Positions 6,681 to 45,915 of a stretch of 64,000 nt of DNA are shown here, in pieces (within the stretch, counting starts at the first letter, position 1; each line of letters starts with the position of its first letter). A program made the translations under genes and the position numbers. Under the pieces are notes generated by a model, which was given only the letters and a program-made list of their open reading frames with translations, ran no database searches and was not told the DNA's origin. Origin of the DNA: a bacterium (lineage in GTDB: Bacteria > Bacillota > Sulfobacillia > UBA995); contig JAVHLP010000008.1 in NCBI GenBank assembly GCA_031082145.1, forward strand, positions 8,818-72,817, read 5' to 3'.

Positions 6681-6790
6681 TCCAATCCCTCCTCGGTGGG
6701 GCCCCTTTCGGCCCCCGCAGTTGCCATTCCTGCCATGGCAGGGTTTTGCCGGGGGCCGGGGAAAACTTGGCTCGAGGAGGGATCTCCCCC

Positions 6791-7324
6791 ATGGAACGCG
6801 AGACCTACCCCCTGGCGGCTGCCATCGCCAACCGCCGCAGCGTCCGGCAGTTCGAGTCCACACCGGTGCCTGACGAGCACCTCCGTATCCTGCTGGAAGC
6901 AGCCATCTCTGCCCCCAGCGCCGGCAATCGCCAGCCCTGGCGCTTCATCGTGGTCAGGAACCCGGGGCTGCGGCTTCAGCTGGCCCAGGCCGCCGGCGGC
7001 CAGAGCTCAGTGGCCACCGCTCCGGTGGCGATCGTGGTATTGGCCGATCTCGCGAGGACCGAGAGCCGCTACGGCCAGCGGGGCACCGAGCTCTACGCCC
7101 TCCAGGACACGGCCGCCGCCATCGAGAACCTGCTGCTCACAGCTGTGTCCCTGGGCTACGCCACCTGCTGGGTGGGTGCGTTCGACGAAGGCCAGGCGGC
7201 CCGGTCCCTGGAACTGCCGCCGGGACTGCGCCCGGTCGCCATCGTGCCGGTCGGAGTGCCCGCCGGCCAGCCTCGTTCCCCCGATCGGCGACCACTGGCG
7301 GAAGTCGTGGATTACCGCGACTAA
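6791..7324 (+). CDS. nitroreductase family protein
   Basis: A GGAGGG RBS precedes the ATG at 6791. The product has the nitroreductase FMN-binding motifs RRSVRQFESTPV..APSAGNRQPWRFIVV. Confidence 0.8.
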   Translation: MERETYPLAAAIANRRSVRQFESTPVPDEHLRILLEAAISAPSAGNRQPWRFIVVRNPGLRLQLAQAAGGQSSVATAPVAIVVLADLARTESRYGQRGTELYALQDTAAAIENLLLTAVSLGYATCWVGAFDEGQAARSLELPPGLRPVAIVPVGVPAGQPRSPDRRPLAEVVDYRD

Positions 7325-7932
7325 CTGCGGCGTATTCGCCGGCCCAGGGACAGCAGACCGGTCTGGCGGAGGCGCCGGGTGAGCCCGGGCCCGCCCCGCG
7401 CGGGGTAGGTTTCCGCGAAGACCACTTCGTCCAGATCCAGTCGGGGCGGGGGCGCGGGCCGCTCAGCGGGATAACCCAGAGTCACCAGCCCCACGACCGC
7501 CAACCGTTCGGGTATCGCCAGGACTTGCCGGACTCCCCGGGGATCGAAGGCCCCGATCCAGCAGGTCCCTAACCCGAGGGCATGGGCGGCTAGCATCAGG
7601 TTCTGCCCCGCCATAGCGCAATCTACGAGGTGCCACCGGTTCGCCGCCGGGTTGCCCAGGATGACCACCACCACCGGTGCTTGCGCCACGTGCCGCCAGC
7701 GGATGAAGTGCCAGCGGGCATGCCGGCCGAGGGCGCGGCGTAGATCCGGCCGGGTGACCACCAGGAACTGCCATGGCTGGTTGTTGGCGGCACTCGGAGC
7801 CCACCTGGCGGCGTCCAGCGCCTCGCGGAGGATCGCCTGGGGAACGGCCTGATCCTGGTAGCACCTGACGCTGCGCCGCTCCCGGATCGCCCCGAGGACG
7901 GTGGCCTGCTTTTCTGTCAGCTGCTCGGTCAT
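7321..7932 (-). CDS. nitroreductase family protein (paralog, convergent)
   Basis: RRSVRCYQDQAV..APSAANNQPWQFLVV. The start is at MTEQLTEKQ. Its 3' end overlaps the previous gene by 4 nt. Confidence 0.8.
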   Translation of the reverse strand: MTEQLTEKQATVLGAIRERRSVRCYQDQAVPQAILREALDAARWAPSAANNQPWQFLVVTRPDLRRALGRHARWHFIRWRHVAQAPVVVVILGNPAANRWHLVDCAMAGQNLMLAAHALGLGTCWIGAFDPRGVRQVLAIPERLAVVGLVTLGYPAERPAPPPRLDLDEVVFAETYPARGGPGLTRRLRQTGLLSLGRRIRRS

Positions 7933-8046
7933 CTCCTGCTCCCTTCCCGGCACCACCGGGCCTGTTGCCTATGGCTCTTGCCCGTCATCTCACTGTGTGT
8001 CCTTGGAGTGATGATACCACGTGCCAGGCCACCTGGTAACCATCCG

Positions 8047-8102
8047 GGACAATTGTCCTGCTAGAGAGGCGCGCCCGCTGTGTCCAACATAATGTGTGGA
8101 CA
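8047..8102. promoter_or_regulatory. two palindromic candidate operator sites upstream of the ATP-grasp operon
   Basis: A perfect 12-bp palindrome GGACAATTGTCC lies at 8047-8058. An inverted repeat TGTCCA-N10-TGGACA lies at 8081-8102 and shares the GGACA/TGTCC half-site. Both sit in the 175-nt divergent intergenic region. Confidence 0.3.
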
Positions 8103-8131
8103 GAATCCTTCCCCGGCGGGGGTGCCCTCAG

Positions 8132-9478
8132 GTGATCTTCGAGTTCGAGCCGGCGCCCGGCGCAAGTGAGATCTGCCTGCCCTCTACGGTGGGGGTGTCC
8201 CCCGGCAAAACGCTGATCTTGAGGCTGGGCACGGCGCGGGTGACGGCTCGAACCACCGCCGGGCCGGCCACCGGCGCTGCCATGGGGACTGGAGCCGCCC
8301 GCCGGTTGGGGCTATCCCTTCCCGCCCGCCTCCGTGCTCGCTGGCACCCGGACCGGCGTACATTGCGGATCGGGCCGGTAGTCGGCATCCTAGTGCGCAA
8401 GGCCCGGAGCCAGTACGGGCCTTTCGGCCCTCAGGCCGGTTTCATCCGGGAACTAATGGACGCCGCCGGCCAGCTGGGAGTCTTCCTGTACGCTTTCGGT
8501 CCGGGTGACGTCAGCTGGGGCCGCCGTCGGGTCAGAGGTTACCGTTATCGCGGCCAAGGCGTCTGGACGCGCGGCCTGTACCCTTACCCGGACGTCCTGT
8601 GGGACCGTGGCTTTTTCCGGGGAGCCGCCCAGCGCCGCTACTGGGGGACCCGCATGGGCCTGGCCCGGGCCCACCGCCGTATGAGGTTTATCAACGCCAT
8701 CTACGGTAACAAGTGGCGCGTCCATCGCGTCCTGCTCCGCAGCCCCGAGGTGCGGCCCCACCTCCCCGAAACGCGACGGGCCAGCAGCGGGCGAGTCGTC
8801 GCCGCCATGGCTCGCCGCCACGGCACAGTCTACCTGAAACCGGCCGGCGGTCTGAAGGGCCGCGGGATCATGCGCCTGGAACGCGTGGGGCAGGGCCGTT
8901 TCCGGCTGCGGGCCGGCACCCGCTCGCGCGGCGGGAGTCTATCCCGCCTGGCCGCCATCGCCCGTCGCCGCGGCTACCTGGTCCAACAGGGCATCGACCT
9001 CGCGCGGCCTTTCGGCCCAATCGGCGATCTTCGCCTGGTGGTCCAAAAGGATGGCGCCGGCAACTGGAGCGTGACCGGGGGGGCAATGCGAGTGGCGGCC
9101 ACCGGTCACATTACCTCCAATATCCACCGCGGTGGCCATGCCGAACCGCTGGACGCCGCCGTCCGGGCGGTGGTGGGTGAAGGAGGCTACGCCGCCACCG
9201 CCGACCTCATCTCCCGGGTGGCCACCGGAGTTGCCCGGGCGGTGGAACGGGCCAGCGGACCATCGGGTGAGATGGGGGTCGACCTGGCCCTGGACCGCGA
9301 AGGCCGGGTGTGGTTCCTCGAGACCAATTCCAAGCTGGCTAGGAGCATCTTCCTGCAGCTAGGAGAGACCGAGACCCGCCGCCGGTCGATCGAACGCCCC
9401 TTGCTGTGGGCGGCCCGACGCAGCGGGTTCGCCGTACCCGAGGACGAACGGGAGGCGAGCTTCAGATGGCCCGGTTGA
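8132..9478 (+). CDS. YheC/YheD-family ATP-grasp protein
   Basis: ATP-grasp motifs VYLKPAGGLKGRGI, QQGIDL and the HITSNIHRGG block are present, together with the VWFLETNSKLA motif typical of YheC/YheD (the E-x-N of ATP-grasp enzymes). A GTG start at 8132 after a G-rich RBS is more likely than the listed 8096. Confidence 0.7.
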   Translation: MIFEFEPAPGASEICLPSTVGVSPGKTLILRLGTARVTARTTAGPATGAAMGTGAARRLGLSLPARLRARWHPDRRTLRIGPVVGILVRKARSQYGPFGPQAGFIRELMDAAGQLGVFLYAFGPGDVSWGRRRVRGYRYRGQGVWTRGLYPYPDVLWDRGFFRGAAQRRYWGTRMGLARAHRRMRFINAIYGNKWRVHRVLLRSPEVRPHLPETRRASSGRVVAAMARRHGTVYLKPAGGLKGRGIMRLERVGQGRFRLRAGTRSRGGSLSRLAAIARRRGYLVQQGIDLARPFGPIGDLRLVVQKDGAGNWSVTGGAMRVAATGHITSNIHRGGHAEPLDAAVRAVVGEGGYAATADLISRVATGVARAVERASGPSGEMGVDLALDREGRVWFLETNSKLARSIFLQLGETETRRRSIERPLLWAARRSGFAVPEDEREASFRWPG

Positions 9479-10761
9479 GGGTGGGCTTGCTCCGCGGCGC
9501 GGAAGGCGAGATCTCGCTCTCCCGGTTGGCCTGCCGGCGGCTCGACTTCTCCCCCGGCTCTCCGGTGCGCCTGCGGGCAGGCGTGAAGACGACCGAAGCC
9601 CGGATCCGGGCCGGCGCCCGGCCGGGGCATATTTTGCTCGCCCCCGACGTCCGGCAGGCACTCGCGCTGCCGGTGGGTCTTCGCCTGAACCTCTGGCGGA
9701 ACCGGGAAGGCGTCCTGCGCCTGGGCCCGCTGGTAGCAGTCCTGACCTTCCGCGGCACCAGCGGGTGGCGCTGGGGGCCCCAGACCCCATTCGTCCTGGC
9801 GGTGACTAGGCGGGGCGGTTCCGCCGGGGTGGTGGCTTATCTTCTCATGCCAGGGCGGATCGACTGGGAGAACCTCACCGCGCGGGGTACCTACCGGCAG
9901 CGGGGCCGCTGGCGGGGGGCCGTTCTACCCCTGCCCGACGTGGTCTACGACCGCGTATCCAGTCGCCGTCACGAAGGCCTGCCGGAGGTGGCGGAGGCCC
10001 GGCGCCGGCTGGCCGAGGTCGTGCCGGCGGGTTATTTCCCCCCATCTTTCCTGGGCAAGCTCGAAGCCCATAACCTGCTTGCGAGCAGCCCCCGGTTGGC
10101 TCCCTACTTGCCGGCCACCGAGCCGTTCAGTGTCGATAACCTGGAACGGATGCTCAGCCAGTACCGGGTGGTCTACCTGAAGCCGGATGGCGGCAGCCTG
10201 GGACGAGGTATCATCCGGGTGCGGCGGTTGCCCGGCGGGCGGGTGGCCTTCCGCTTCGCCCGGAGAGGCGGGGGGAGGGCCCGGTCGCCCCAGGCCCTGG
10301 CCAACCGCTTGAAAACCCTCGGCCAGCGGCCTTACCTCATCCAACAAGGTGTCCCGGTGGCCACCTGTGGCGGCCGCGTCTACGATGTCCGGGTCTTGGC
10401 CCAGAAGAATAGCCAGGGGCGCTGGCGCGTCACCCGCCACTACGCCCGGGTCGCGCGCCGGGGAAGGGTGGTCTCCAATATCTCGCGAGGAGGGACCGGG
10501 CTGGGAACCTGGCGAGTAGTTCGAGACGCGGGCGCCCGGCAGACCATCCTGCAACTCGGCCAGGATGTCCCCCCGGCGCTGGAGGCGGCTCTGGGCCAAC
10601 CCCTGGGAGAACTGGGCGTCGACCTGGGAGTAACCCGGGATGGGCGGGTCTTCATCATCGAGGTTAACGCCAAGCCCTACCGCGAGACCTGGGGCTGGGG
10701 TTCCGGGCCGACCTTCCGCTATCCCCTGGCCTACGCCCGGCACCTGGCCCGGCAGACCTGA
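9466..10761 (+). CDS. YheC/YheD-family ATP-grasp protein (second copy)
   Basis: The ATG at 9466 follows a GGAGG and overlaps the previous stop by 13 nt. The same motif set is present (VYLKPDGGSLGRGI, VVSNISRGG, VFIIEVNAKP). Confidence 0.7.
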   Translation: MARLRVGLLRGAEGEISLSRLACRRLDFSPGSPVRLRAGVKTTEARIRAGARPGHILLAPDVRQALALPVGLRLNLWRNREGVLRLGPLVAVLTFRGTSGWRWGPQTPFVLAVTRRGGSAGVVAYLLMPGRIDWENLTARGTYRQRGRWRGAVLPLPDVVYDRVSSRRHEGLPEVAEARRRLAEVVPAGYFPPSFLGKLEAHNLLASSPRLAPYLPATEPFSVDNLERMLSQYRVVYLKPDGGSLGRGIIRVRRLPGGRVAFRFARRGGGRARSPQALANRLKTLGQRPYLIQQGVPVATCGGRVYDVRVLAQKNSQGRWRVTRHYARVARRGRVVSNISRGGTGLGTWRVVRDAGARQTILQLGQDVPPALEAALGQPLGELGVDLGVTRDGRVFIIEVNAKPYRETWGWGSGPTFRYPLAYARHLARQT

Positions 10762-10770
10762 GGGGGGACC

Positions 10771-12150
10771 ATGGGCAAGCTCTTCTTACATGCCGAAGAC
10801 GACCCGGGTGGCGAGGAACTCGCCGGCCGGCTCAGCCAGCTGGGCTTCGCCACCGGCACCCGGCCCGGAGACGCCCGGTGGGACGTCCTCGTACGCTGGG
10901 GCCACCTGGGAGGCGAGGACAACTACCCCCTGGTGCTGAACGAGCGCCAGGCTCTCGAGGACCTCTCCTCCCGTGTCCCGGCCTGCCTACGAGCAAACCG
11001 GGTGCGAGTCACTTCGGCGATGGGCGGGAGGGGCCGCTACCGGGTATTTGCCTGTAACCTCCGATCCCTGGCCGTGTACCGGCGCACGGCTCGGGGCTAT
11101 GCCCGGCTGCGCCGCCGGCTCGCGCGCATACGCCGCCGCGCCGTCCGGTCCCTGCACTTCCTGGGACTTGACTTCGGGGCCGTGGATCTTACCGCCGGGG
11201 GCTACGTCTGCGGCGTGGATCCCTCCCCCTCGCTTCCATCCGACCTGGCTGGCCCCTTTGCCCGGGCCCTGGCCGACATGGCGAACGAACTGGAGAAACT
11301 GGCCCAGGCTCGCCGGGCGGGTGACCACCGCCGGTCGGCCGTGCTGGGGGCCGACCCCGAGTTCATGCTGATCAGCCGGCGGACAGGGCGCATGGTCCCG
11401 GCCTCGATCTTCTTCCCACGTTTCGGCTTCGTGGGTTGCGACGAGCGGGCGGTCTGGACCCCTCGTATGCGCCGCGCCCTGGCCGAGATCCGGCCGCGGC
11501 CGCGGGCTGATCCGCGGGAACTGGCGGGAGCCATCCGGGATGGTCTTCGCCGGGCCCTGCGCCGGACCGCCCGGCGGCGGGTCATGGGAGTGGCGGGGAA
11601 CATGCCCGTCCGGGGGTTCCCAACCGGCGGCCACATTCACTTCTCCCGCTGCCGTCTGGGCAGCCGGTTCCTCCGAGCCCTGGACAACTACCTGGCGCTC
11701 TTACTCCTGATGGTGGAGAACGCGCATACCGCTCGCCGCCGGCGGCGCCGCTACGGTTACCTGGCCGATCTGCGGTCCAAGCGGCACGGCTTCGAGTACC
11801 GGACCCCCGGCAGCTGGCTGGTGTCCCAGGACGTTGCCAACGGGGCACTCTGCCTGGCCAAGGTGATCGCCGACGACCACGACTGCCTGAAGGCGGCTCC
11901 CTTGCGTGACCCCGCCCTGGTAAGGGCCTTCTACCAGTGCGACAAGGCAATCCTGGGCCGGGTTGTGCCCTCGCTGTGGCGGGACCTCACCCTGGCCCCC
12001 TCCTACCCCCTGTATCGCCAGGAACTGGAGACCTTCCGAACCCTTATCGAGAGCGGCTGGGAGTGGGGGGAGCGGAGCGACCTTCGCCGCACCTGGGGCC
12101 TGATGCCGGCCGCCTCCACCCGCTCCCGCCGCCGTCGTCGCCGTCGCTAG
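10771..12150 (+). CDS. amidoligase fusion: degenerate ATP-grasp C-lobe plus glutamine-synthetase/GCS2-like (Amidoligase_2-like) domain
   Basis: The N-terminal half has RimK-like C-lobe motifs (RYRVFACNLRSL...LHFLGLDFGAVDL) but no ATP-binding N-lobe. The C-terminal half has LGADPEFMLI (a GS/GCS2-type beta-strand) and GGHIHFS, which resembles the GQHVHVG motif of YbdK-type carboxylate-amine ligases. A paralog lies at 48282. Both domain assignments are from memory and need an HMM check. Confidence 0.5.
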   Translation: MGKLFLHAEDDPGGEELAGRLSQLGFATGTRPGDARWDVLVRWGHLGGEDNYPLVLNERQALEDLSSRVPACLRANRVRVTSAMGGRGRYRVFACNLRSLAVYRRTARGYARLRRRLARIRRRAVRSLHFLGLDFGAVDLTAGGYVCGVDPSPSLPSDLAGPFARALADMANELEKLAQARRAGDHRRSAVLGADPEFMLISRRTGRMVPASIFFPRFGFVGCDERAVWTPRMRRALAEIRPRPRADPRELAGAIRDGLRRALRRTARRRVMGVAGNMPVRGFPTGGHIHFSRCRLGSRFLRALDNYLALLLLMVENAHTARRRRRRYGYLADLRSKRHGFEYRTPGSWLVSQDVANGALCLAKVIADDHDCLKAAPLRDPALVRAFYQCDKAILGRVVPSLWRDLTLAPSYPLYRQELETFRTLIESGWEWGERSDLRRTWGLMPAASTRSRRRRRRR

Positions 12151-15100
12151 CGAAGCCCCGCGTGCCGCCCCAGCGAGTCGGCGGCCCGCAGGGCCCAGTT
12201 CACCCGCTCGGCAAGAGCCTCCTTGGCCGATACCTCCACCAGAAAAGCGTGGACGCCCAGGAACTCCCCGGCGGCCCGGGCCAGGCTCCCCCGCACCGGC
12301 GGGCGAAGCGCCGTCCAGCCGGCCAGAGGCTTGCTGGCCCAGCCGTTGAGATCGGTGACCATGGCGTTGGCGAGCTGGGCCGTACCCGTGTTGGCGTGGT
12401 AGATCACGGTCTGGCCGAACTCGCCCTTCCCCGCCTTGTAGTAGTCGGCTCCCTCGATGAATGTGATGAGATGGGTCACCTTGTGCCTCCCGAGACTCTG
12501 CCAGATAGCTGTGGCCAGGGCTTCGCTGGGAGTCTCCCCCTTGGCCTGCGGGAAGGCCCGGTTGAGGTCACCTTCGCCGGGGGCGGTACGGCTCCCGAGC
12601 TCTACCGCCAAGCGGTTGGCCTGGGGCAGCAGCAAGATGACCCCCTTGGCCGGTAGCTGAGCGGCTTCCAGTAGTGACCCGACAGCCGTAGGGCTCCATT
12701 TCTCATCCCCCCGGATGCCGCCGGCCAGCATCAGCACCGGACCCGGCTTGCCACTGTCCAGCCGGTAAAGCGGAGTGGCGTCCTTGGTCCCGGCGGCCAG
12801 CCATTCGACGGTGACTCCGGGGGGCAAAGACGGCGGAGGGGGAGCCGGGTAGGCGGGCGCGGCCATGCCCAGGGCAACCAGCAAGCCGTCCACCGCCCGG
12901 GCTCCCTGCTCGGCCCGGCCGGCCAAACTCTCTTTCCGGCAGAGTTCCACCAGGAAGGCGGGAATCCCCGCCACCTCCCCCGCGGCCCGCGCCAGGCTGG
13001 TCGGGACGGGATTGCGCAGGGTGGTGAAGCGGGGCAAGGACTTCTCGATGATCTGGTTGGCTGCGACGACCATGGCACCGGCCAGGGGTTCGGCCTTGGT
13101 TACGGGGAAGTAGATCAGAGTCTGGCCGAACTCACCGGTCCGGGCCAGGTAGTAGTCGTTCCCTTCCACAAAGCTGACCACGACGTCCGCCGCCCGGGCC
13201 AGGTCCCAGATGGCCCGGGCCAGGGCGGTGGAAGGAGTCTCGCCGGCCGCCCGGGGGAAAGCCCGGTTGAGGTCGGATCCCCCCGGCGCCGACCGGGTGC
13301 CGGCCGCCAGCGCCGGGCGGTTAGCCTCCGGCAGCACCAACAGCCGGCCCTTGCTTACCTCGCAGTCGGCAATCAGGCGGGCAGCTTCCACCCCGCCCGG
13401 CTCATCACCTCGTAAGCCGCCCACCACCAGCACGGTGGGGCCGGGCTGGCTCCCATTGTACACGTGGAGGGGGGTGGCCTGCGAAGTACCCGGTAGCAGG
13501 GTGTGGGTCTCCCGGGGAGACGGGCCTGAGCTCTTCGGCTTCATGCCCAACTGGACGAGAAGAGAGTCGGCGGCCCGCAGGGCCAGGTCAACCCGGGTCT
13601 CCACCGGCTCCCGGGAGCACAGATCCATCAGTATGGCCTGGGCCCCCAAGAAGTCCCCCGCCGCCCGGGCCAGGCTCCCCGGCGCCGGGTTCCGCAAGGT
13701 GGTGAAACGGGCCACCTCGGCCAGGATGACGGAGTTGAGGTCGGCCGCCATGCCGGCAGCCAGCCCGGCCACTCCGGACGGACCGGCATGGATCAGGGTG
13801 TGCCCGAAGTGTCCGGTCTTCCTCAGGTAGTAGTCGGGGTCTTCGGTGAAAGTGAGCACGTACTGGACCGCCTGGTCCTGCATGGCCCCCCAGATCGCCC
13901 CGGCCAGTTCGTCGGCCGGGCGTCCGGGCTCGCGGGGGAACAAGCGGTTCAGGTCTTCGCCACCGGGAAACGCCCGCTGACCCAGGTCCAGGGCCAGCCG
14001 GTTGGCTCCCGGCAGCACCAGCAGCCGTCCCTTGTCCACTCGCAGGTCACGAGTTGCCAGGGCGGCCAGCACGGTCGCCGGCGCGTCTCCCCGGAGCCCA
14101 CCGGCGATCATGACCGTGGGACCGGGCTGCCCGCTGTCCTGGATGTACAGGGGCGTCGCCAGAGGGGTCCCGGCCAGCAGAACCTGGCGGGTCATCCCCG
14201 GGCCAAGGTCGGGGGGTGGTGGCGGCAGGTAGACCCTTTCCCTCATACCCAGCCGGGCCAGCAGCGAGTCGACCGCCCGGGCCCCGTCGACGGCCCGGCC
14301 GTCCAGTGGCTCCCGGGCCGACAGCTCGATCAGGAAAGCCCGTATGCCGAGGAGTTCACCGGCGGCGCGGGCCAGGCTGGTCGGCACCGGGTTCAGCAGC
14401 ACACTGAAGGCCGCCAGGTTGCGGTCATAGCCCAGGTTCAGGTCAAGCGCCATCCCGTCGGCCAGCACGCTGGCCCCGGGGACGGGGTAGTAGATCACAG
14501 TCTGTCCGCACTCACCGGTCCGCGCCAGGTAGTAGTCGGCTCCCTCCACGAAGGTGACCAGGTGGTTCACCTGGTAGCGCCGGACAACCTGCCAGATGAC
14601 AGTCGCCAGGGCCCCTTCGGGCCGGTTGGCGGTAGTCCGGGGGAAAGCCCGGTTCAGGTCCGCCTCGCCGGGCGCGGTGTGGCTGGCAGCCGCGATGGCC
14701 TGGGGATTAGCCTCCGGCAACACCAGCAGCGTCCCCGAGGTGACCGCGAACTGCCGCACGAGTCCGGCCGCCGCCACCCCGCCGGGTTCGTTGCCCCGCA
14801 GGCCGCCGACCACCATCACCACGGGACCCTCCACCCCGCTATCGTAGGCGAAAAGGGTGGTCTGATCAGGGTGCTCCTCGAGCAGGGTGACCAGGTTCAA
14901 ACCCGGTCCCAGGTCGGGGAAATCGGCCCCCCAGTCATCGTCGTCGTCCCATGCGGGTGGGTCGTCACCGGGAGGAACAGACGTCGGCGGCCCTCCCGCG
15001 CCCGCCATGCCGAGCTCGCGGAGGTAGATCTCTACCATCTGTATCTGGTAGCCGATGCGGGTGGACAGGGCCAGCCGCTGCGATGTCTCGAAGATGGCGG

Positions 15101-15779
15101 AGTTCACGCCGAGATACGCCCCTGTGGCCCGGGCGATGCTGCCCGGCACCGGATAACTGATCAGGGTGAACTTGTGCAGGTTGACGCTTATGCCCTGGTT
15201 GATCTCGCGCACGGCCAAGCGACCCAGCTCGGTGTTCACCGTCCGGGGATAGTGAATGAGGGTCTGCCCCACTGAACTGGTCTTGGGGTTCTTGTAGAAG
15301 TCCGCGGCCTCGTGCAGGTCGAGGTACCAATCCACGTTGAACTCCTTGAAGACGTTCCAGATCTCGAGGGCGATGGGCCGGGTGGGATCGGTGTTGGCGC
15401 TCTGGGGGAACTGCCGGTTCAGATCGAAACCCAGGACCGGGCAGGTACGCTTCCGGGCGGCCACCGCCGGCCGGTTGGCCTCCGGGATGACGATGAAGGT
15501 CCCAGCCCTGATATCGCGGTCGACAAACGTCCAAGCTGCCCTCCAGCCCGCAGTCTCGTTGCCATGCACTCCCCCGGTGACCATGAAGACGGGGCCGGGG
15601 TCGGGGCCCCGGATGATGTACAGGGGGGTCTCGTAGCGGGTACCTTTGGCCAGGTACCTGATTTCTACCGTGCTCTCTGCCCGGGTCGGCGATGGCAGGC
15701 ACACGGACACCAGAGGAGCGAGTACCAGCAGGCAAACCAGTAACTGGCTTAGCCTGCGCCGGAGGATGGAGTTGGGCAC
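12147..15779 (-). CDS. secreted multi-domain M14 carboxypeptidase-like protein: five tandem domains, only the first with intact zinc ligands
   Basis: A signal peptide (MPNSILRRRLSQLLVCLLVLAPLVSVCLPSPTRA) follows a GTG start at 15779 after a GAGGTGGA RBS. Domain 1 has GGVHGNETAG, DLNRQFP and DLHEAAD (the M14 HxxE, N-R and His elements). Domains 2-5 have GGLRGNE, GGLRGDA, GGLRGDE or GGIRGDE, and FVEGADYY in place of the second His. Each domain carries its own DLNRAFP/DLNRLFP motif. Confidence 0.75.
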   Translation of the reverse strand: MPNSILRRRLSQLLVCLLVLAPLVSVCLPSPTRAESTVEIRYLAKGTRYETPLYIIRGPDPGPVFMVTGGVHGNETAGWRAAWTFVDRDIRAGTFIVIPEANRPAVAARKRTCPVLGFDLNRQFPQSANTDPTRPIALEIWNVFKEFNVDWYLDLHEAADFYKNPKTSSVGQTLIHYPRTVNTELGRLAVREINQGISVNLHKFTLISYPVPGSIARATGAYLGVNSAIFETSQRLALSTRIGYQIQMVEIYLRELGMAGAGGPPTSVPPGDDPPAWDDDDDWGADFPDLGPGLNLVTLLEEHPDQTTLFAYDSGVEGPVVMVVGGLRGNEPGGVAAAGLVRQFAVTSGTLLVLPEANPQAIAAASHTAPGEADLNRAFPRTTANRPEGALATVIWQVVRRYQVNHLVTFVEGADYYLARTGECGQTVIYYPVPGASVLADGMALDLNLGYDRNLAAFSVLLNPVPTSLARAAGELLGIRAFLIELSAREPLDGRAVDGARAVDSLLARLGMRERVYLPPPPPDLGPGMTRQVLLAGTPLATPLYIQDSGQPGPTVMIAGGLRGDAPATVLAALATRDLRVDKGRLLVLPGANRLALDLGQRAFPGGEDLNRLFPREPGRPADELAGAIWGAMQDQAVQYVLTFTEDPDYYLRKTGHFGHTLIHAGPSGVAGLAAGMAADLNSVILAEVARFTTLRNPAPGSLARAAGDFLGAQAILMDLCSREPVETRVDLALRAADSLLVQLGMKPKSSGPSPRETHTLLPGTSQATPLHVYNGSQPGPTVLVVGGLRGDEPGGVEAARLIADCEVSKGRLLVLPEANRPALAAGTRSAPGGSDLNRAFPRAAGETPSTALARAIWDLARAADVVVSFVEGNDYYLARTGEFGQTLIYFPVTKAEPLAGAMVVAANQIIEKSLPRFTTLRNPVPTSLARAAGEVAGIPAFLVELCRKESLAGRAEQGARAVDGLLVALGMAAPAYPAPPPPSLPPGVTVEWLAAGTKDATPLYRLDSGKPGPVLMLAGGIRGDEKWSPTAVGSLLEAAQLPAKGVILLLPQANRLAVELGSRTAPGEGDLNRAFPQAKGETPSEALATAIWQSLGRHKVTHLITFIEGADYYKAGKGEFGQTVIYHANTGTAQLANAMVTDLNGWASKPLAGWTALRPPVRGSLARAAGEFLGVHAFLVEVSAKEALAERVNWALRAADSLGRHAGLR

Positions 15780-15828
15780 GGGTCCACCTCTTTCTTCTCG
15801 CCCCAAGACAAGGCGTTATGAGGTCAAA

Positions 15829-15915
15829 CGCCCAGCTCGGGATGATTATGGTGGACCGCCCATTCGCCGGCAGGCTTGGCATCTCCTGCCTGCTCTAGCA
15901 GGTATTTTGTGGCAC
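15829..15915 (-). promoter_or_regulatory. conserved ~87-nt upstream element, copy 1 (before the 5-domain M14 gene)
   Basis: The shared core with the 16848-16935 copy is CGCCCAGCT.GGG...TGGTG.A.CGCCCATTCG.CGGCA.GGCTTGGCATCTCCTG.CT...CAGGTA. It lies 43-49 nt upstream of the start codons of both M14 genes and contains a small hairpin, CCTGC-TCTA-GCAGG. Confidence 0.35.
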
Positions 15916-15960
15916 TTATGGCAGCATAGCTGCGGATCCGCTTGCCAGAAGGGGTTGCAC

Positions 15961-15996
15961 CGACTCAAAGAAGAAGCCGCGCCTTAAGGGCGCGGC
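15961..15996 (-). terminator. rho-independent terminator after the single-domain M14 gene
   Basis: On the minus strand a stem (arms GCCGCGCC and GGCGCGGC, TTAA loop) is followed by TTCTTCTTT. Confidence 0.4.
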
Positions 15997-16024
15997 CGGA
16001 GAGGAAAAGGGCAGGTGCGGGGGG

Positions 16025-16804
16025 TTAGCGGCCCGACATGCCCAGTTCGCGCAAGAAGATCTCCACCACCTGCACCTGGTAGTTAATGCGGGTGGCCAGG
16101 GGCAGTTCGCGCGAGGTCTCCATGATGTAGGAGTTCACCCCGAGATAGTCGCCTGCGGCCCGGGCAATGCTGCCCGGAACCGGGTAGTTCAGCAGGGTGA
16201 ACTTGTGTAGCCGGCGGCTGATCCCCTGGTTCAGCTCCTGAACGGCCAGGTTGCCCATCCGGGTGGCGGTGGGGCCGGGGTAATGGATCAGGGTCTGGCC
16301 GATGGAATCCCGCTTCGGATCGTTGTAGAAGTACACCGCCTCGTGCAGGTCCACGAACCACTCGACCCGGTAGTCGGTGAACACGCTCCAGATCTCGCGG
16401 GCGATGAGGCGGGTGGGGCTGGCGTTAGGACGGGTGGGAAAAGCCCGGTTCAGATCAAAGCGTCCGTCCGGGCACAGTCGAGTCCGAGCTCCCACCGCCG
16501 GCCGGTTCGCCTCGGGAATGACGATGAAGGTGCCAGCCTGGATCTCGCGGTCAGCGAATCGCCCGGCCGCCATCCAGCCGGCGAGCTCGCTGCCGTGCAC
16601 TCCTCCGGTGATCAGGAACACGGGACCGGGGGCGAGGCCCCGGATGATGTACATGGGAGTCTCGTAGATGGAGCCAGCGGCCAGGTACCTGACTTCCACC
16701 GTGCTCCCCGCCCGAGCGGCCGACGGGACCGGCAGGAGCAGGGTCAACGCCAGCAGGGAGACCACCATCAGGCTGGCCCTGGGGCTGACTACTGGGCTGG
16801 ACAC
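16025..16804 (-). CDS. secreted single-domain M14 carboxypeptidase-like protein (intact HxxE and His)
   Basis: A GTG start after GGAGGTGGA gives the signal peptide MSSPVVSPRASLMVVSLLALTLLLPVPSAARA. The product has GGVHGSELAG, DLNRAFP and FVDLHEAVYFY, and is co-linear with domain 1 of the 5-domain protein. Confidence 0.75.
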   Translation of the reverse strand: MSSPVVSPRASLMVVSLLALTLLLPVPSAARAGSTVEVRYLAAGSIYETPMYIIRGLAPGPVFLITGGVHGSELAGWMAAGRFADREIQAGTFIVIPEANRPAVGARTRLCPDGRFDLNRAFPTRPNASPTRLIAREIWSVFTDYRVEWFVDLHEAVYFYNDPKRDSIGQTLIHYPGPTATRMGNLAVQELNQGISRRLHKFTLLNYPVPGSIARAAGDYLGVNSYIMETSRELPLATRINYQVQVVEIFLRELGMSGR

Positions 16805-16847
16805 AAATCCACCTCCGCCTCGACTCGCCCCCGGCGGGCGTACATAC

Positions 16848-16935
16848 GCCCAGCTTGGGGCTGTTTTGGTGAATCGCCCATTCGGCGGCAAGGCTGGCAT
16901 CTCCTGTCTCCGAAGGCAGGTAGATTATGCAAGAC
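16848..16935 (-). promoter_or_regulatory. conserved ~87-nt upstream element, copy 2 (before the single-domain M14 gene)
   Basis: See copy 1. The copies are about 75% identical over ~87 nt, while the flanking non-coding sequence is unrelated. Confidence 0.35.
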
Positions 16936-29084: not shown

Positions 29085-29118
29085 GGCGGACCCGGCAACC
29101 TTGCCGGATCCGCCCTCG
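29085..29118 (-). terminator. stem-loop immediately 3' of rnpB
   Basis: GGGCGGAUCCGGCAA-GG-UUGCCGGGUCCGCCC (15-bp stem, one mismatch) directly follows the P1 3' strand. Confidence 0.35.
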
Positions 29119-29120
29119 TG

Positions 29121-29489
29121 GCGACCAGATCGATAAGCCGAGTTCAGTCGAGGATGGTCATCTCTCTGGGACCAGGGTTGCCCCATGGCCTCATGCGACC
29201 AACCCGAGGGGTCGGCGGGCCGCGTCATTCCCCTCCTATTTGGTCTTGCTCCGGGTGGGGTTTGCCTAGCCGGCCCGTCACCGGACCGCTGGTGAGCTCT
29301 TACCTCACCGTTGCACCCTTGCCCGTCAGGGACGGGCGGTACGTTTTCTGTGGCACTTTCCTTGGGGTCGCCCCCACTGGGTGTTACCCAGCACCCTGCC
29401 CTGCGGAGCTCGGACTTTCCTCGGGCACGGCCTCGCGGCGCTTGTGCCCGCGACCACCTGATCTGGTCAGCCGATCGGCTTATACTCGC
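29121..29489 (-). ncRNA. rnpB: RNase P RNA (bacterial type A)
   Basis: The minus strand carries the universally conserved GAGGAAAGUCCGAGCUCC...CAGGGUGCUGGGUAACACCCAGUGGGGGCGACCCCAAGGAAAGUGCCACAGAAAACGUACCGCC P4 region, ...GGUAAGAGCUCACCAG..., ...ACCCGGAGCAAGACCAAAUAGG... and the 3' ...GAACUCGGCUUAUCGAUCUGGUCGCC, which pairs with the 5' GCCGAUCGGCUGACCAG as helix P1. This is nearly colinear with E. coli M1 RNA. The 5' end sits ~7 nt downstream of a -10 box. Confidence 0.9.
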
Positions 29490-31798: not shown

Positions 31799-33535
31799 TC
31801 AGGGACCACCGGCTGCCACGTGTCTCCGGCCCTTGAAAGACGCGGCCAGGATGACGCCGGCAGTCATGACAAGGCCCCATGCCAGCAAGGGAGCCGCCGA
31901 GTTGCCTTCGCCGGTCGCCGTGAGGCCGGGCTCTTCTCCCGGCCGGATGCCGGGTGCGGGCTCACCGCGGCCACCCGGGAGAGGTCCCGGCGGCAGCACG
32001 GCCCCGGGTTGGCGGCCGGCACCCTCCCCGGGAGGCCTCACCGCGTCGCCACGGGGAAGCTGCGGCGCGAGGGGCCCACCCCCACCCAGGTTCGGCACTC
32101 TACCTCCGGCCATTCCCATGCCGCTACCGGCGTTGGTGGAGGGCAATTCCCCGCTGAGCTGCCGGTGAATTGACGTGGACATTGCGGCAGCGAGTTCAAG
32201 CAGCCCGGGGACGTTTCCGCCCAGGCCCGGCACTCCGCCTATCTGGAAGCCCTGGCGGCCCGGTTGGGCGGCCACCCCTGGCAGCTGCGGCAACACTCCT
32301 GCTTGATCTGCGTCACCCATGGCGCCGCCGGCAACGGTGCCGGAGATGCTCATCACAAACTGCTCGTAGGTGTAGAAGGCGGTGGGATCGGTCCTGACGT
32401 ATTCCGAGATGAGTTCAAAGAGCCGCGCGGTTTCCGCTTCCAGATAGCCCCCGCTCAGGTACTCGGTGGCGACCCATTCGAGGTAGGCATGATAGGTCTC
32501 AAGACGTCGCTCATCCTTTAGGAGTTCGGCGATGAGGGGTCTATCGGCCAGTGGCCCCTGGGTCGGCTCGTCGATGTACACGCTCTGAGCATCGCCGTTG
32601 AAGCCGAAACCACCGAAGGCCATGTTCAGGTCCCATGGCAGGATGGTGAACACCCCGCTTCGCTCGTACAAGTAGTAGTTGTGGGCAAAGTTGCCCTGGT
32701 AGCTGTCGAAGTTGACGAGGGCCGTGCTGACGGCAATGTACCTCAGGGCCGCGTCGACGTCCAGGTACCTCTCGATGTCGCCACCGTTGTTCAGCGCGTC
32801 CAGCATCCTCGTGAGCTTGGACCAGTCGGCCTTCTTCAGCGTACTCTTCACCTCGAGGCTCGAATAGCCTGCCGGATCGGTGCCGTTGTACTTCAAGGTA
32901 TTCCCCACCGACTTGTACAGATCTCCGGTAAGGTCCCCGAAGTTCCGCTCGAGATAGGGCTCAAGTATGCTCTCAACCGCGAGGTAGAGCCCGAAGTACT
33001 CGCCGTTCACATATACGGCGGCAGGGGCGAAGGCCGGCACGGCCACCCCCATCTCCTCGAATATCTGGTAGGAGAGATACTCCCGCATGTAGGAGGGATC
33101 GGAGAAGCCGTTGTTCAGGTTCAACTGGGTCAACCCCGCCAGGGTCTGGTTCTCTATTAGGCCGTTGAAGTTGAGCTTGAAGCTGTAGCGGTTGCCGCCG
33201 CTGCGGGCGACCGTCATGAGGCTGGAATTGCCCTTGGGCCGGATCTTCACGAACGGGTAGACGTCGCCGTTGACGGTAACCGTCGCGATCCGGAACTCCT
33301 CCTGGCGAGCATTTTCTATCATGTACGCCCAATCGGCTTCGCTCATCTCAATGCGGATGTCCATGACCTCGTCGCGCTGGAAATACCGGGTCACGTACTC
33401 GTCACCGTAAACGGTGACGACACCGGTGCCGAACATCCTGAAGCCGGCGATGAAGAGGGTCACCAGCCCGGCCATCACCAGGGACAGGGCCGCGATCTTC
33501 ACGTCGACCGTTCGCTCAGGATGCATATTCACCAC
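31799..33535 (-). CDS. CotH-family protein (spore-coat-protein-H-like atypical kinase), membrane-anchored
   Basis: An N-terminal TM anchor precedes the CotH domain (NGDVYPFVKIRPKGNSS...NLNNGFSDPSYMREYLSYQIFEEMG...NFDSYQGNFAHNYYLYE) and a Gly/Pro-rich tail with a C-terminal TM. GC is lower. Confidence 0.75.
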   Translation of the reverse strand: MVNMHPERTVDVKIAALSLVMAGLVTLFIAGFRMFGTGVVTVYGDEYVTRYFQRDEVMDIRIEMSEADWAYMIENARQEEFRIATVTVNGDVYPFVKIRPKGNSSLMTVARSGGNRYSFKLNFNGLIENQTLAGLTQLNLNNGFSDPSYMREYLSYQIFEEMGVAVPAFAPAAVYVNGEYFGLYLAVESILEPYLERNFGDLTGDLYKSVGNTLKYNGTDPAGYSSLEVKSTLKKADWSKLTRMLDALNNGGDIERYLDVDAALRYIAVSTALVNFDSYQGNFAHNYYLYERSGVFTILPWDLNMAFGGFGFNGDAQSVYIDEPTQGPLADRPLIAELLKDERRLETYHAYLEWVATEYLSGGYLEAETARLFELISEYVRTDPTAFYTYEQFVMSISGTVAGGAMGDADQAGVLPQLPGVAAQPGRQGFQIGGVPGLGGNVPGLLELAAAMSTSIHRQLSGELPSTNAGSGMGMAGGRVPNLGGGGPLAPQLPRGDAVRPPGEGAGRQPGAVLPPGPLPGGRGEPAPGIRPGEEPGLTATGEGNSAAPLLAWGLVMTAGVILAASFKGRRHVAAGGP

Positions 33536-40688: not shown

Positions 40689-40764
40689 GGCTGGCTGAAC
40701 CTGGCAGGGGGCTCTTGGCAGGACTGGCAGCTAGAGGGGTGAATCTCCCTTTCCCGAGGGGGAG

Positions 40765-42525
40765 ATGGACTCGCGCCGCACCGTCGCCCTGCTGGTTCTC
40801 TGCCTGGCGCTGACCCTTGCCTTGCGGGCAGCCGGTCCCGATGCTCATCCCCCGGCCTGCCCGGTGGCGGGCGGGGCGGCCGCTCCCGTCCCGCCGGATC
40901 CCCTCGAGCTGTATGCCCGGCTGGGACTGGCCGATCCCGCCGCCCCCGAGGACCGGGCCTGGCTGGAGGAGTTGGCGGGGGGACTGGACGGTCTGGCTTA
41001 CCATGCCTGCGTCCTTCTGGCCCGTTCGGGAGCAGAGGCCACTTACTTCCAACGCGCTCTGGACCTCCGCTACACTCCCGCGATCCAGCTTGAGTATGCT
41101 CGAGCCCTGGAGTCCGAGGGGCGGTCGGAGGAAGCCCTCATGGCCTGGCTGCGCATCCTGGCCCCGGGCGAGGCGCTTGAAGCCCTCCGCCGCCTGGAGC
41201 CGGATCCCGTGAAGCGGGCCGGCCACCTGAACCAGCGCCGGCTGGCGACGCAGGCCCTGGCAGAGTTGGGCGGCGAACAAGGGGCCACCGCGGCCCGCGA
41301 GCGAGCCCTGGCCCTGGCCCGGCTGGGCCGGCACGTCGAGGCTCTCCCCCACTTCCGGGCTTGGCTGGCGGGGAGCCCGGAGGACGCGGCGGTACTCCTC
41401 GCCCATGCCGCCTCCTTGGAGGCAGCAGGCCGCCTTACGGACGCCGCGAGGGAGTACCGGGCGTCAGGACCGGCGGGAGGCCTGGGGCTGGGGCGGATGC
41501 TGGAGCGCTCCGGGCGGCCGGCGGAAGCGGCCGAGGCCTACCTGTCCTCGTCCGATGTCAATGCCCACTGGCAGGCAGCCTTGATCCTGGAGCGCCGCGG
41601 GAGGGCAGCGGAAGCCCTCATCATCTACGGGGATCTGGCGTCCGGTAGCAGCCGGCTCGCTGGGGACGCCGCCTTCCGGGGAGTCGTGGTCGCCCGCCGT
41701 CTTGGGCAACCCGAAGGACCTTTTCGGGCGCTGATCGCCCCCACCTCGCACTGGGCCTGGCGGCTGGGATGGCGCGAGGACCCGGCCCCCCCGCCCCCGG
41801 TGGAGCCGGTGGAACCGGCCGCCCTGACCCTGGCCTCCCAGTTGGCGGCCGGCGCCCCGGGGCCGGGGACACCCCTGGAGTTAGCCCACCTGGAACTGGA
41901 GATAGCCCTGCCCCGGCTTGAAGACCCCGAAGCACTGGCCGTAGGCAACTGGTACCTGGAGAGGGGCGACTACCGCCGGGCCGCCCGGATCGGGATGGCC
42001 CTCCTTCCCCGCTTGCCGACCCGCGACGTGTACTTGCTGGCCTATCCCCTTGCCTACCGCGACCTGGTGGTGGACGCGGGGGTCGCCTTCGGCGTCGAGC
42101 CCTACCTGCTGTGGGCGGTCATGCGGGAGGAGAGCCACTACTCACCCTCCGCCCTCTCGGTAGCGGGAGCCCGGGGCCTCATGCAGGTTATGCCGGCTAC
42201 CGGGAGTTGGCTGGCGGGGCGGATGGGGATCGCCTACGTGGGGCCCGAGGATCTCTACCAGCCCGCCGTCAGCGTGCGCATGGGCGCCTGGTACCTTGGG
42301 TACCTCCTGAGCCGCTTCGAGGGGTCGCTAGATCTGACCCTGGCCGCTTACAACGGGGGGGAAGGCAGTGTGCTCGGCTGGCTCGAGAGCCCTCTCTACC
42401 GGGATCCCCACGATTTTCCGGCCGTCATCACCTTCACCGAGACGCGTGAGTACCTGACCAAGGTGCTGGACACGTTGCTCGTTTACCGGTGGCTATACCC
42501 GGAGCTCACTGGGCCAGCGAGTTGA
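40765..42525 (+). CDS. soluble lytic murein transglycosylase (Slt family 1) with N-terminal superhelical domain, secreted
   Basis: A signal peptide and a TPR-like alpha-superhelix precede the catalytic motifs MREESHYSPSALSVAGARGLMQVMP and AAYNGGEG. Confidence 0.8.
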   Translation: MDSRRTVALLVLCLALTLALRAAGPDAHPPACPVAGGAAAPVPPDPLELYARLGLADPAAPEDRAWLEELAGGLDGLAYHACVLLARSGAEATYFQRALDLRYTPAIQLEYARALESEGRSEEALMAWLRILAPGEALEALRRLEPDPVKRAGHLNQRRLATQALAELGGEQGATAARERALALARLGRHVEALPHFRAWLAGSPEDAAVLLAHAASLEAAGRLTDAAREYRASGPAGGLGLGRMLERSGRPAEAAEAYLSSSDVNAHWQAALILERRGRAAEALIIYGDLASGSSRLAGDAAFRGVVVARRLGQPEGPFRALIAPTSHWAWRLGWREDPAPPPPVEPVEPAALTLASQLAAGAPGPGTPLELAHLELEIALPRLEDPEALAVGNWYLERGDYRRAARIGMALLPRLPTRDVYLLAYPLAYRDLVVDAGVAFGVEPYLLWAVMREESHYSPSALSVAGARGLMQVMPATGSWLAGRMGIAYVGPEDLYQPAVSVRMGAWYLGYLLSRFEGSLDLTLAAYNGGEGSVLGWLESPLYRDPHDFPAVITFTETREYLTKVLDTLLVYRWLYPELTGPAS

Positions 42526-45715: not shown

Positions 45716-45915
45716 TACGCGCCCTCCTCAACCGGCATGGTCCACCCCGCGGCGCCTTGACCCGCGGAGGTCTTGCGGGATCTCGCTGGACCGGCACCTG
45801 TACTTTCAACGACCAGGCGTCTACTCCTCCTTCAGTGCCGGCAACCGCGCTGCACCATGCGCCCCGGCTTTACATAAACATGAAGAAAGCTCCCGCCACG
45901 TCTGGGGGAAGGGAT

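Follow-up and report, generated by a model that had tools for sequence, protein, structure and literature searches.

A possible sporulation-linked envelope module of YheC/YheD-type and COOH-NH2 ligases and exported carboxypeptidase-like proteins in a member of the Sulfobacillia

INTRODUCTION

The spore-coat proteins YheC and YheD have been on record for about twenty years, and a reported activity for them was not found in the searchable literature. In Bacillus subtilis, yheC and yheD are sigma-E/SpoIIID genes, and YheD is a coat protein of the basement layer. Iyer and colleagues are said to have counted TupA, of teichuronopeptide synthesis, within the YheC/D family. The pairing of ATP-grasp and COOH-NH2 ligases has already been predicted computationally, and their operonic linkage was observed in the same work (Iyer et al. 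2009, according to PMC4431377). Here, we describe a gene cluster in which an operon for two YheC/D-type ATP-grasp ligases and a COOH-NH2 ligase fused to a degenerate ATP-grasp domain faces two genes for exported proteins related to AstE/AspA-Csd4-type zinc carboxypeptidases. The cluster lies in a stretch of 64,000 nucleotides (64 kb; G+C content, ~70%), called the window throughout, from a bacterium of the Sulfobacillia (GTDB lineage Bacillota, Sulfobacillia, UBA995; assembly GCA_031082145.1, contig JAVHLP010000008.1, positions 8,818 to 72,817 of the forward strand). In the searchable literature, we found no account of a recurrent linkage of such ligases to an exported AstE/Csd4-like subfamily, of arrays of pseudo-enzyme repeats, of a cotE-ligase-peptidase locus, or of a split between SigH and sigma-K promoters.

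RESULTS

Three basic ligases in one operon

Families were assigned by profile search at the Pfam cut-offs. The two ATP-grasp proteins, YheCD_A and YheCD_B, reached 221.6 and 202.9 bits against PF14398 (cut-off, 26.8; E values of 1.4e-65 and 7e-60), and their genes overlap by exactly 13 nt (9466-9478) if the start of the public gene model is taken for YheCD_B, so that both the family and the overlap read from the sequence in the original prediction are confirmed. In an alignment with their homologues, every invariant ATP-grasp residue is kept in both proteins, and the ATP-grasp fold of these ligases has its ATP/Mg residues intact (two Lys, with Asp/Glu/Asn in the C-terminal strands). The predicted model of YheCD_B (30 homologues) is confident, with a predicted local distance difference test (pLDDT) score of 91.6, and the N terminus of one YheC/D homologue matches the MazE/AbrB family (1.7e-6).

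The third ligase gene (10771-12150, 459 aa) begins 9 nt past the end of YheCD_B, and its product is identical to a public protein with the locus tag RDU89_08575. Its nearest relatives, at ~64% identity, come from metagenome-assembled genomes (MAGs), one of Clostridiales, one of Bacillota, and one labeled Symbiobacterium thermophilum. Residues 192 to 444 match PF14395 (COOH-NH2_lig, phiEco32-like type 2) at 299.5 bits (cut-off, 25; 2.1e-89), covering model positions 1 to 254 of 254. The GS/GCS2-like superfamily proposed for this amidoligase was correct, but the family is PF14395, the only one found, and not PF12224, which gave no match at E<=0.01. The fold is GS/GCS2-like, acidic residues, His, and Arg of the active site are conserved, and the AlphaFold model (73 homologues) is confident (pLDDT, 94.6; predicted template modeling score, 0.93). 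In the homologue alignment, 31 columns of the catalytic half are invariant, many of them Asp, Glu, His, or Arg, and residues 1 to 190 contain not a single invariant Lys, Glu, or Asn; for this reason, the N-terminal lobe is regarded as a degenerate ATP-grasp, as had been suspected. Profile comparison of this N-terminal domain with the YheC/D proteins returned a nonsignificant match of 18 columns and was discarded, and the domain was identified by fold search instead. The fold search of the models gave RimK, LysX, and GshB as structural neighbors of the ATP-grasps and GCS2/PafA for the COOH-NH2 ligase, and no PDB chain matched the PF14398 or PF14395 proteins by sequence.

None of the three ligases has a hydrophobic segment or a signal sequence, in keeping with the cytoplasmic location first assigned to them. 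They are also very basic, with +9 to +10 net charges per 100 aa (YheCD_A has a net charge of +45), whereas the range for 16 further window proteins is -4 to +6; YheC/D homologues are likewise basic (median, +7.2 per 100 aa). The fused ligase ends in an arginine run, RSRRRRRRR (12103-12150, + strand), the place of which is taken in Syntrophomonadaceae homologues (e.g., locus L021, 9623-11224) by tails of 60 to 100 residues rich in Ser, Thr, and Arg.

There is a second PF14395 paralogue in the window (48315-49676, + strand; 6.6e-81), 38% identical to the first and located between two large TPR proteins (45757-48285, + strand, and 49686-52130, - strand). With +5.3 net charges per 100 aa, it is counted among the 16 proteins above. 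YheC/D, cotE, and peptidase genes are all absent from its surroundings, and in a distance tree, it groups with the cotE-linked ligases of loci L007 and L015.

Two exported carboxypeptidase-like proteins

The operon runs into two genes of the opposite strand, and the stop codon of the nearer one overlaps that of the third ligase by 4 nt. Both products begin with a hydrophobic N-terminal signal sequence and exceed the cut-offs of two M14-clan families, namely PF24827 (AstE_AspA_cat; 180.5 bits for the long protein and 51.4 for the short one; cut-off, 25) and PF17033 (Peptidase_M99; 96.5 and 33.4 bits; cut-off, 27). In the long protein (ORF [open reading frame] of 1219 aa), PF24827 matches over five stretches (3.4e-53), and PF17033 gives 2.4e-27; the values for the short protein (291-aa ORF) are 1.2e-13 and 4.3e-08. 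Their early description as secreted, convergent M14-like proteins thus stands as far as export and clan are concerned, but classical PF00246 had no match in either of them at E<=0.01.

By sequence, the best PDB matches of the short protein are 3cdx, an AstE/AspA-family protein (6.7e-15), DoeB (6twl, 1.9e-09), and Csd4 (4wcm, 1.3e-06), the Helicobacter cell-shape carboxypeptidase, which aligns over the whole domain (residues 92 to 288 of the short protein). The kinship with AstE/AspA-type enzymes that had been put forward is borne out at this level; however, none of the named NCBIfam equivalogs (DoeB, MpaA, aspartoacylase, AstE) was reached by either protein, the best scores being far under the cut-offs (121.9 versus 402.7 for DoeB, 43.2 versus 157 for MpaA, and 34.4 versus 180 for aspartoacylase).

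In the short protein, the HxxE motif and the second His are in place, as is the catalytic Glu. Its public model starts at 16768, and the GTG codon at 16804 is preceded by a good Shine-Dalgarno (SD) sequence and yields a classical signal peptide. The long protein is made up of five domains, a feature missed by the original prediction. An alignment of these with an orthologue from Syntrophomonas and the short protein showed the HxxE...H zinc ligands in domain 1 only (GGVHGNE/DLHE, versus GGLRG../TF[VTI]E in domains 2 to 5). In domains 2 to 5, the first His is replaced by Arg and the second by Val, Thr, or Ile, the DLNR arginine is retained as in domain 1, and so, for the most part, is the catalytic Glu position. 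To judge from this pattern, the four zinc-less domains are probably inactive binding copies. Some relatives are tandem proteins in which one domain is degenerate and the other intact, and others add Fn3 domains or a lipoprotein signal.

The cluster recurs in spore-forming Firmicutes

The fused ligase family is widespread, often directly after cotE. Our genome scan gave at least 580 loci, of which 80 were fetched; co-occurrence counts refer to these 80 (loci are labeled L), and neighborhoods were searched by tblastn with the window proteins and CotE. The sampled family belongs mostly to spore-forming Firmicutes. At least one YheC/D gene was found in the flanks of the ligase at 53 of the 80 loci (directly upstream in 39 of the 69 with available sequence), cotE was near it at 36, and a convergent gene of the same peptidase subfamily was just downstream at 28 (27/72 if only loci with 1 kb or more of downstream sequence are counted). 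Only two loci lacked YheC/D, cotE, and peptidase alike. Paenibacillus, Lihuaxuella, and other Bacilli have the order miaB-ymcA-cotE-ligase-mutS-mutL, and in Limnochordales-type loci, cotE has the ligase on one side and two YheC/D genes on the other. The ligase operon of the window (8132-12150) is a paralogue of this cotE-adjacent ligase cluster of many Firmicutes; the closest relatives of the window carry a peptidase-linked cluster (L002, L003) plus a separate cotE-linked one (L023, L006).

The linkage to the peptidase is found in more than one branch of the ligase, since the window group and the Syntrophomonadaceae group form separate clades in a distance tree without support values. A search that set out from the peptidase gave two homologues that stand alone and two that adjoin ligases. 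One of the latter is at L126 (Bacillota MAG GCA_003387785, 1791-10703), which is not among the 80 and is the only locus seen with both cotE and peptidase; there, a single 9-kb stretch has cotE between two COOH-NH2 ligase genes and, after the second of these, two YheC/D genes, a divergent AstE/Csd4-like peptidase gene of two domains, and one more YheC/D gene. At L124, a Fn3-bearing peptidase homologue is convergent with a ligase pair. The genes are therefore not scattered in other genomes, as they might have been, but recur together, and the adjacency to cotE strengthens the link with spores that the original prediction had drawn, as does the promoter type of the Syntrophomonadaceae ligase operons (see below).

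The CotE homologues encoded beside the ligase (L005, L006, L012, L016, L024, L062, and others) have terminal 25 to 40 residues that are almost entirely Asp/Glu. Such tails recall those of tubulin and S6, on which TTL- and RimK-type ligases act. Syntrophomonadaceae-type loci have a small DUF503 gene directly upstream of the peptidase gene and in the same orientation (L021, 12121-12441, - strand; L124, 1735-2025, + strand).

Different predicted promoter types for ligases and peptidases

The consensus of SigH promoters is AGGA-N17/18-GAAT (PMC12456013). It matches three times in the window (1.6 expected by chance), and two of the matches precede the peptidase genes. These two copies (15862-15887 and 16880-16905) are about 85% identical, with diverging flanks. 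The motif stands at the aligned position before the peptidase genes in L001-L003, and 19 of 24 Syntrophomonadaceae peptidase leaders have its core at the corresponding place (read by eye from the alignment; background, 0.022 per 140 nt). The third match (40720-40744, + strand) is ~20 nt before a gene for a TPR + SLT lytic transglycosylase (40765-42525), which hints at a small SigH-type cell-wall regulon. Positions 16805 to 16935, initially included in the gene block, are the noncoding promoter and 5' untranslated region (5'UTR) of the short peptidase gene, and the other limit of that block, 8047, is not a gene start.

For sigma-K, the -10 consensus is CATA---TA. Before the ligase operon, GCAC-N16/17-CATAnnnT[AG] occurs at 17 of 23 Syntrophomonadaceae loci (background, 0.026 per 170 nt), with a -10 of the form CATAttATG located 16 to 17 nt after GCAC; C at the fourth -35 position is indicative of a sigma-K rather than a sigma-E promoter (PMC517825). 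In the lineage of the window, CATAAnnTG is found ~38 nt ahead of the likely ligase start, and the AC of the -35 in L002 only. The ligase operon thus appears to be of sigma-E/K type and the peptidase genes of SigH type, these assignments being motif matches and not measurements.

Other interpretations of the ~85-nt block that is conserved before both peptidase genes and in L001-L003 were tried and rejected. As a leader RNA or riboswitch, it had no Rfam match; a pattern scan of metagenomes gave 38 chance matches, none adjoining a peptidase gene; RNAalifold found no structure in the 24 Syntrophomonadaceae leaders; and the pairing between 5'UTR and SD in Syntrophomonadaceae was no better than in shuffled sequences (mean z, 0.08). 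The sequence just 3' of the SigH-like -10 (GGTCCACC) is complementary to the SD region (GGTGGACC), 15850-15857 with 15781-15788 (- strand) and the 16868-16875 region with the SD before 16804. In this helix, 2 of 8 pairs are compensatory among the 5 copies compared; Syntrophomonadaceae do not conserve the pairing, and the anti-SD probably lies in part at or upstream of the transcription start. Sigma-54 and sigma-A promoters did not fit by eye in spacing or in the second hexamer, and the only sigma-70-like site found was an unrelated one. The block is better explained as a SigH-type promoter than as a leader RNA.

Table 1. Features of the ligase-peptidase cluster (window coordinates)
Feature	Position	Strand	Remarks
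Sigma-E/K-type -10-like motif CATAATGTG	8088..8096	+	Upstream of ligase operon; conserved CATAAnnTG in L002, L003
YheC/D-type ATP-grasp ligase A (YheCD_A)	ORF 8096-9478, likely start GTG 8132	+	PF14398, 1.4e-65
YheC/D-type ATP-grasp ligase B (YheCD_B)	9466-10761	+	PF14398, 7e-60; start ATG = NCBI gene model P0158
Degenerate ATP-grasp domain, N-terminal part of third ligase	10771..11340	+	
COOH-NH2 ligase (GCS2/GS-like) catalytic domain, poly-Arg C terminus	11344..12150	+	
Five-domain AstE/AspA-Csd4-like protein, signal peptide	ORF 12147-15806, likely start GTG 15779	-	PF24827, PF17033
Zinc-less domains 2-5 of five-domain protein	about 12150-14909	-	
Zinc-ligand domain 1 of five-domain protein	about 14991-15674	-	
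SigH-type promoter of five-domain peptidase gene, AGGAGAT-N-CGAAT	15862..15887	-	
Terminator-like hairpin 3' of short peptidase gene	15975..15997	-	9-bp stem, T-rich tail
Single-domain AstE/AspA-Csd4-like zinc carboxypeptidase, signal peptide	ORF 16025-16900, likely start GTG 16804 (259 aa)	-	
SigH-type promoter of short peptidase gene	16880..16905	-	

Neighboring genes

The hairpin at 15975..15997 separates the two peptidase transcription units. The cluster is flanked by genes for nitroreductases, a major facilitator superfamily (MFS) transporter, a polysaccharide deacetylase, an FGGY kinase, and an aldolase, which were kept out of the module because their synteny is confined to the closest relatives. 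The two nitroreductase-family genes (6746-7324, + strand; 7321-7956, - strand) are convergent, lie directly upstream of the ligase operon, and give weak matches to BluB, the C-terminal part of FbiB, and SagB. Farther away, there is a CotH kinase-family gene (31799-33535, - strand; PF08757, 4.8e-64) in a stretch of lower G+C content (about 0.61 at 30 to 36 kb versus about 0.70 elsewhere). A class A RNase P RNA (29118-29469, - strand; 294.6 bits) is the only Rfam match of the window at the gathering threshold.

DISCUSSION

A module for the spore envelope and its alternatives

We tentatively prefer to read the cluster as a sporulation-linked envelope module consisting of a ligase operon and exported carboxypeptidases, and would call this plausible rather than probable. 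Each ligase would join an amine to a carboxylate that it has activated as an acyl-phosphate. The N-terminal CDC48-N/AbrB-like barrel of the two RimK/LysX-like ATP-grasps would recognize the acceptor, the dead ATP-grasp domain of the GCS2/PafA-like ligase probably docks this enzyme to its partners, and the three would jointly make a tail of amino acids or a short (iso)peptide branch, which would most likely be of the Glu/Asp type. The acceptor might be an acidic macromolecule of the developing spore envelope. For the cotE-linked versions, the obvious candidate would be the acidic C-terminal tail of CotE, given the D/E-rich composition of these tails, the basic ligases, and the RimK/LysX-like fold. 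The ligases would act late, in the mother cell. The Sec-exported zinc carboxypeptidases would carry out the reverse chemistry, hydrolyzing the amide and freeing a C-terminal residue with a free alpha-carboxylate, at a site outside the membrane that could be the cell wall or the intermembrane space/cortex. The four zinc-less copies, in which the carboxylate-binding Arg is retained, probably serve for binding. As far as can be judged from the families, the chemistries of ligases and peptidases are complementary. The CotH gene of the window also counts in favor of this module. A more elaborate version, and to us an improbable one, would be a "tail code" of spore-forming Firmicutes, in which RimK/TTL-like and PafA-like ligases extend acidic CotE-type tails or another envelope acceptor, exported AstE/Csd4-type proteins act as erasers and their zinc-less copies as readers or anchors, and SigH and sigma-K keep the expression of the two sets separate.

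Several points weigh against an envelope module with a common substrate. There is no match to cotE anywhere in the 64-kb window and no acidic-tailed ORF in it that could be a candidate substrate. No exporter is conserved in the cluster either, and since ligases and peptidases are predicted to be on opposite sides of the membrane, any shared substrate must be exported. The different predicted sigma factors suggest different timing, and the ligase promoter of the window is a partial match, with the -10 element CATAATGTG only and the -35 "AC" missing. Many ligase loci have no peptidase, peptidase homologues without ligase neighbors exist in Paenibacillus and in another Bacillota genome, and the peptidase-linked loci are not independent events because most of them come from one family, the Syntrophomonadaceae. 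To this must be added that we found no solved structure for PF14395 or PF14398 and, in the searchable literature, no experimental work or assayed activity on PF14395, PF14398, or TupA beyond listings. The opposite membrane sides, the different sigma factors, and a linkage that is not universal are the reasons for giving substantial weight to another explanation, on the unlikely side in our opinion but a serious one, according to which there is no shared substrate. The exported peptidases would trim peptidoglycan stem peptides (gamma-D-Glu-mDAP, as Csd4/Pgp1 and MpaA) at SigH sporulation onset, the ligases would be late coat enzymes of the mother cell, and the adjacency would come from a shared developmental program or inherited synteny. 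The alignment of Csd4 over the entire catalytic domain, the PF17033 score above the cut-off, and the weak MpaA match fit this well, together with the signal peptides, the differing promoter types, the ligase-free peptidase homologues, and the SigH-like motif before the SLT lytic transglycosylase gene. It is more difficult to reconcile with a peptidase subfamily that adjoins ligases in three arrangements and at least two ligase clades, in L126 even inside a cotE-ligase cluster, and with an adjacency conserved over class-level distances, which is unusual for functionally unrelated genes.

The predicted topology would also suit a polymer of the envelope that is not specific to spores, as its product is exported. 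The ligases would make an exported anionic peptide polymer of the teichuronopeptide or polyglutamate kind, which the secreted enzymes would then shorten or break down and to which the large protein would be anchored by its zinc-less repeats. Very basic ligases are expected of polyanion binders, peptidase relatives carry Fn3 or lipoprotein-type surface modules, TupA is said to be a member of the YheC/D family, and SigH is a transition-phase factor that is not strictly sporulation specific. However, the cluster has no conserved exporter or glycosyltransferase, the neighboring MFS and deacetylase genes being common to close relatives only, and the confinement of the family to endospore-forming lineages, its tight linkage to cotE, and the sigma-K-type promoter of the Syntrophomonadaceae ligase operons make such a polymer doubtful. 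Much less credible still is a peptide natural product, with the ligases modifying a ribosomal or small peptide, the nitroreductases acting as SagB-like dehydrogenases, and the exported peptidases maturing the product. The two nitroreductase genes are conserved in L002 and L003, one weak match is to the SagB family, and PsnB, MdnC, and CdnC, ATP-grasps of ribosomally synthesized and posttranslationally modified peptides (RiPPs), are among the structural neighbors. Yet the closest neighbors are RimK/LysX/GshB and not RiPP cyclases, a precursor-peptide gene is absent, the nitroreductases are missing from the Syntrophomonadaceae and cotE-linked clusters, and the neighborhood as a whole is simply a case of synteny among close relatives.

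If the ligases do modify coat or cortex components, as in the sporulation-linked module that we prefer, they would represent an unrecognized step in the assembly of the spore envelope. The CotE acidic tails as acceptors, the exported peptidase subfamily as the reverse activity, and the predicted promoters are candidates that can be tested. If the linkage is only developmental, the peptidases would still be a new family of wall-remodeling proteins of sporulation onset with an unusual array of pseudo-enzyme repeats.

Comparison with known systems

The ATP-grasps of the window belong, with strong scores and intact catalytic residues, to the same Pfam family as B. subtilis YheC and YheD, next to which the COOH-NH2 ligase and the M14-like peptidase are absent. 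Since the activity of YheC/D is not known, this comparison yields no substrate. The cotE-linked coat ligase clusters differ from the window in having cotE. RimK, LysX/ArgX, and GshB are structural neighbors of the YheC/D-type ligases at only 13 to 19% sequence identity, and the YheC/D proteins have an additional N-terminal barrel of the CDC48-N/AbrB type. GCS2/YbdK and PafA/Dop resemble the COOH-NH2 ligase in fold but with no detectable sequence match to PDB chains; a Pup-like gene is absent here, and none of the solved structures matched has a comparable fusion to an inactive ATP-grasp.

On the side of the peptidases, AstE/AspA, DoeB, Csd4/Pgp1 (Peptidase_M99), and MpaA are the best Pfam, NCBIfam, and PDB matches. 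All of these enzymes cleave an amide, often a gamma-glutamyl or N-acyl bond, and thereby release a residue that carries an alpha-carboxylate. The HxxE...H zinc site of AstE/AspA-Csd4 is found again in the active domains of the window, along with the catalytic Glu and the Arg that binds the carboxylate. The short protein ends right after the catalytic domain, whereas the matched AstE/AspA and Csd4 chains have 330 to 439 aa. Unlike these relatives, the window proteins are predicted to be exported and include a tandem array mostly devoid of zinc ligands.

The original prediction had compared the locus with the tubulin enzymes TTLL and CCP and with the RimK system, in which writer and eraser act in one compartment. 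This analogy is weakened by the different compartments (signal peptides in the peptidases, none in the ligases) and the apparently different sigma factors, reflected in different promoters, and the peptidases belong to the AstE/Csd4 branch and not to that of CCP. It should be taken as a description of the chemistry and not as evidence of membership. With the spore wall or capsule peptide-ligase systems predicted by Iyer et al. (2009), as far as described in PMC4431377, the locus shares the same two families, YheC/D and COOH-NH2 ligase, within one operon.

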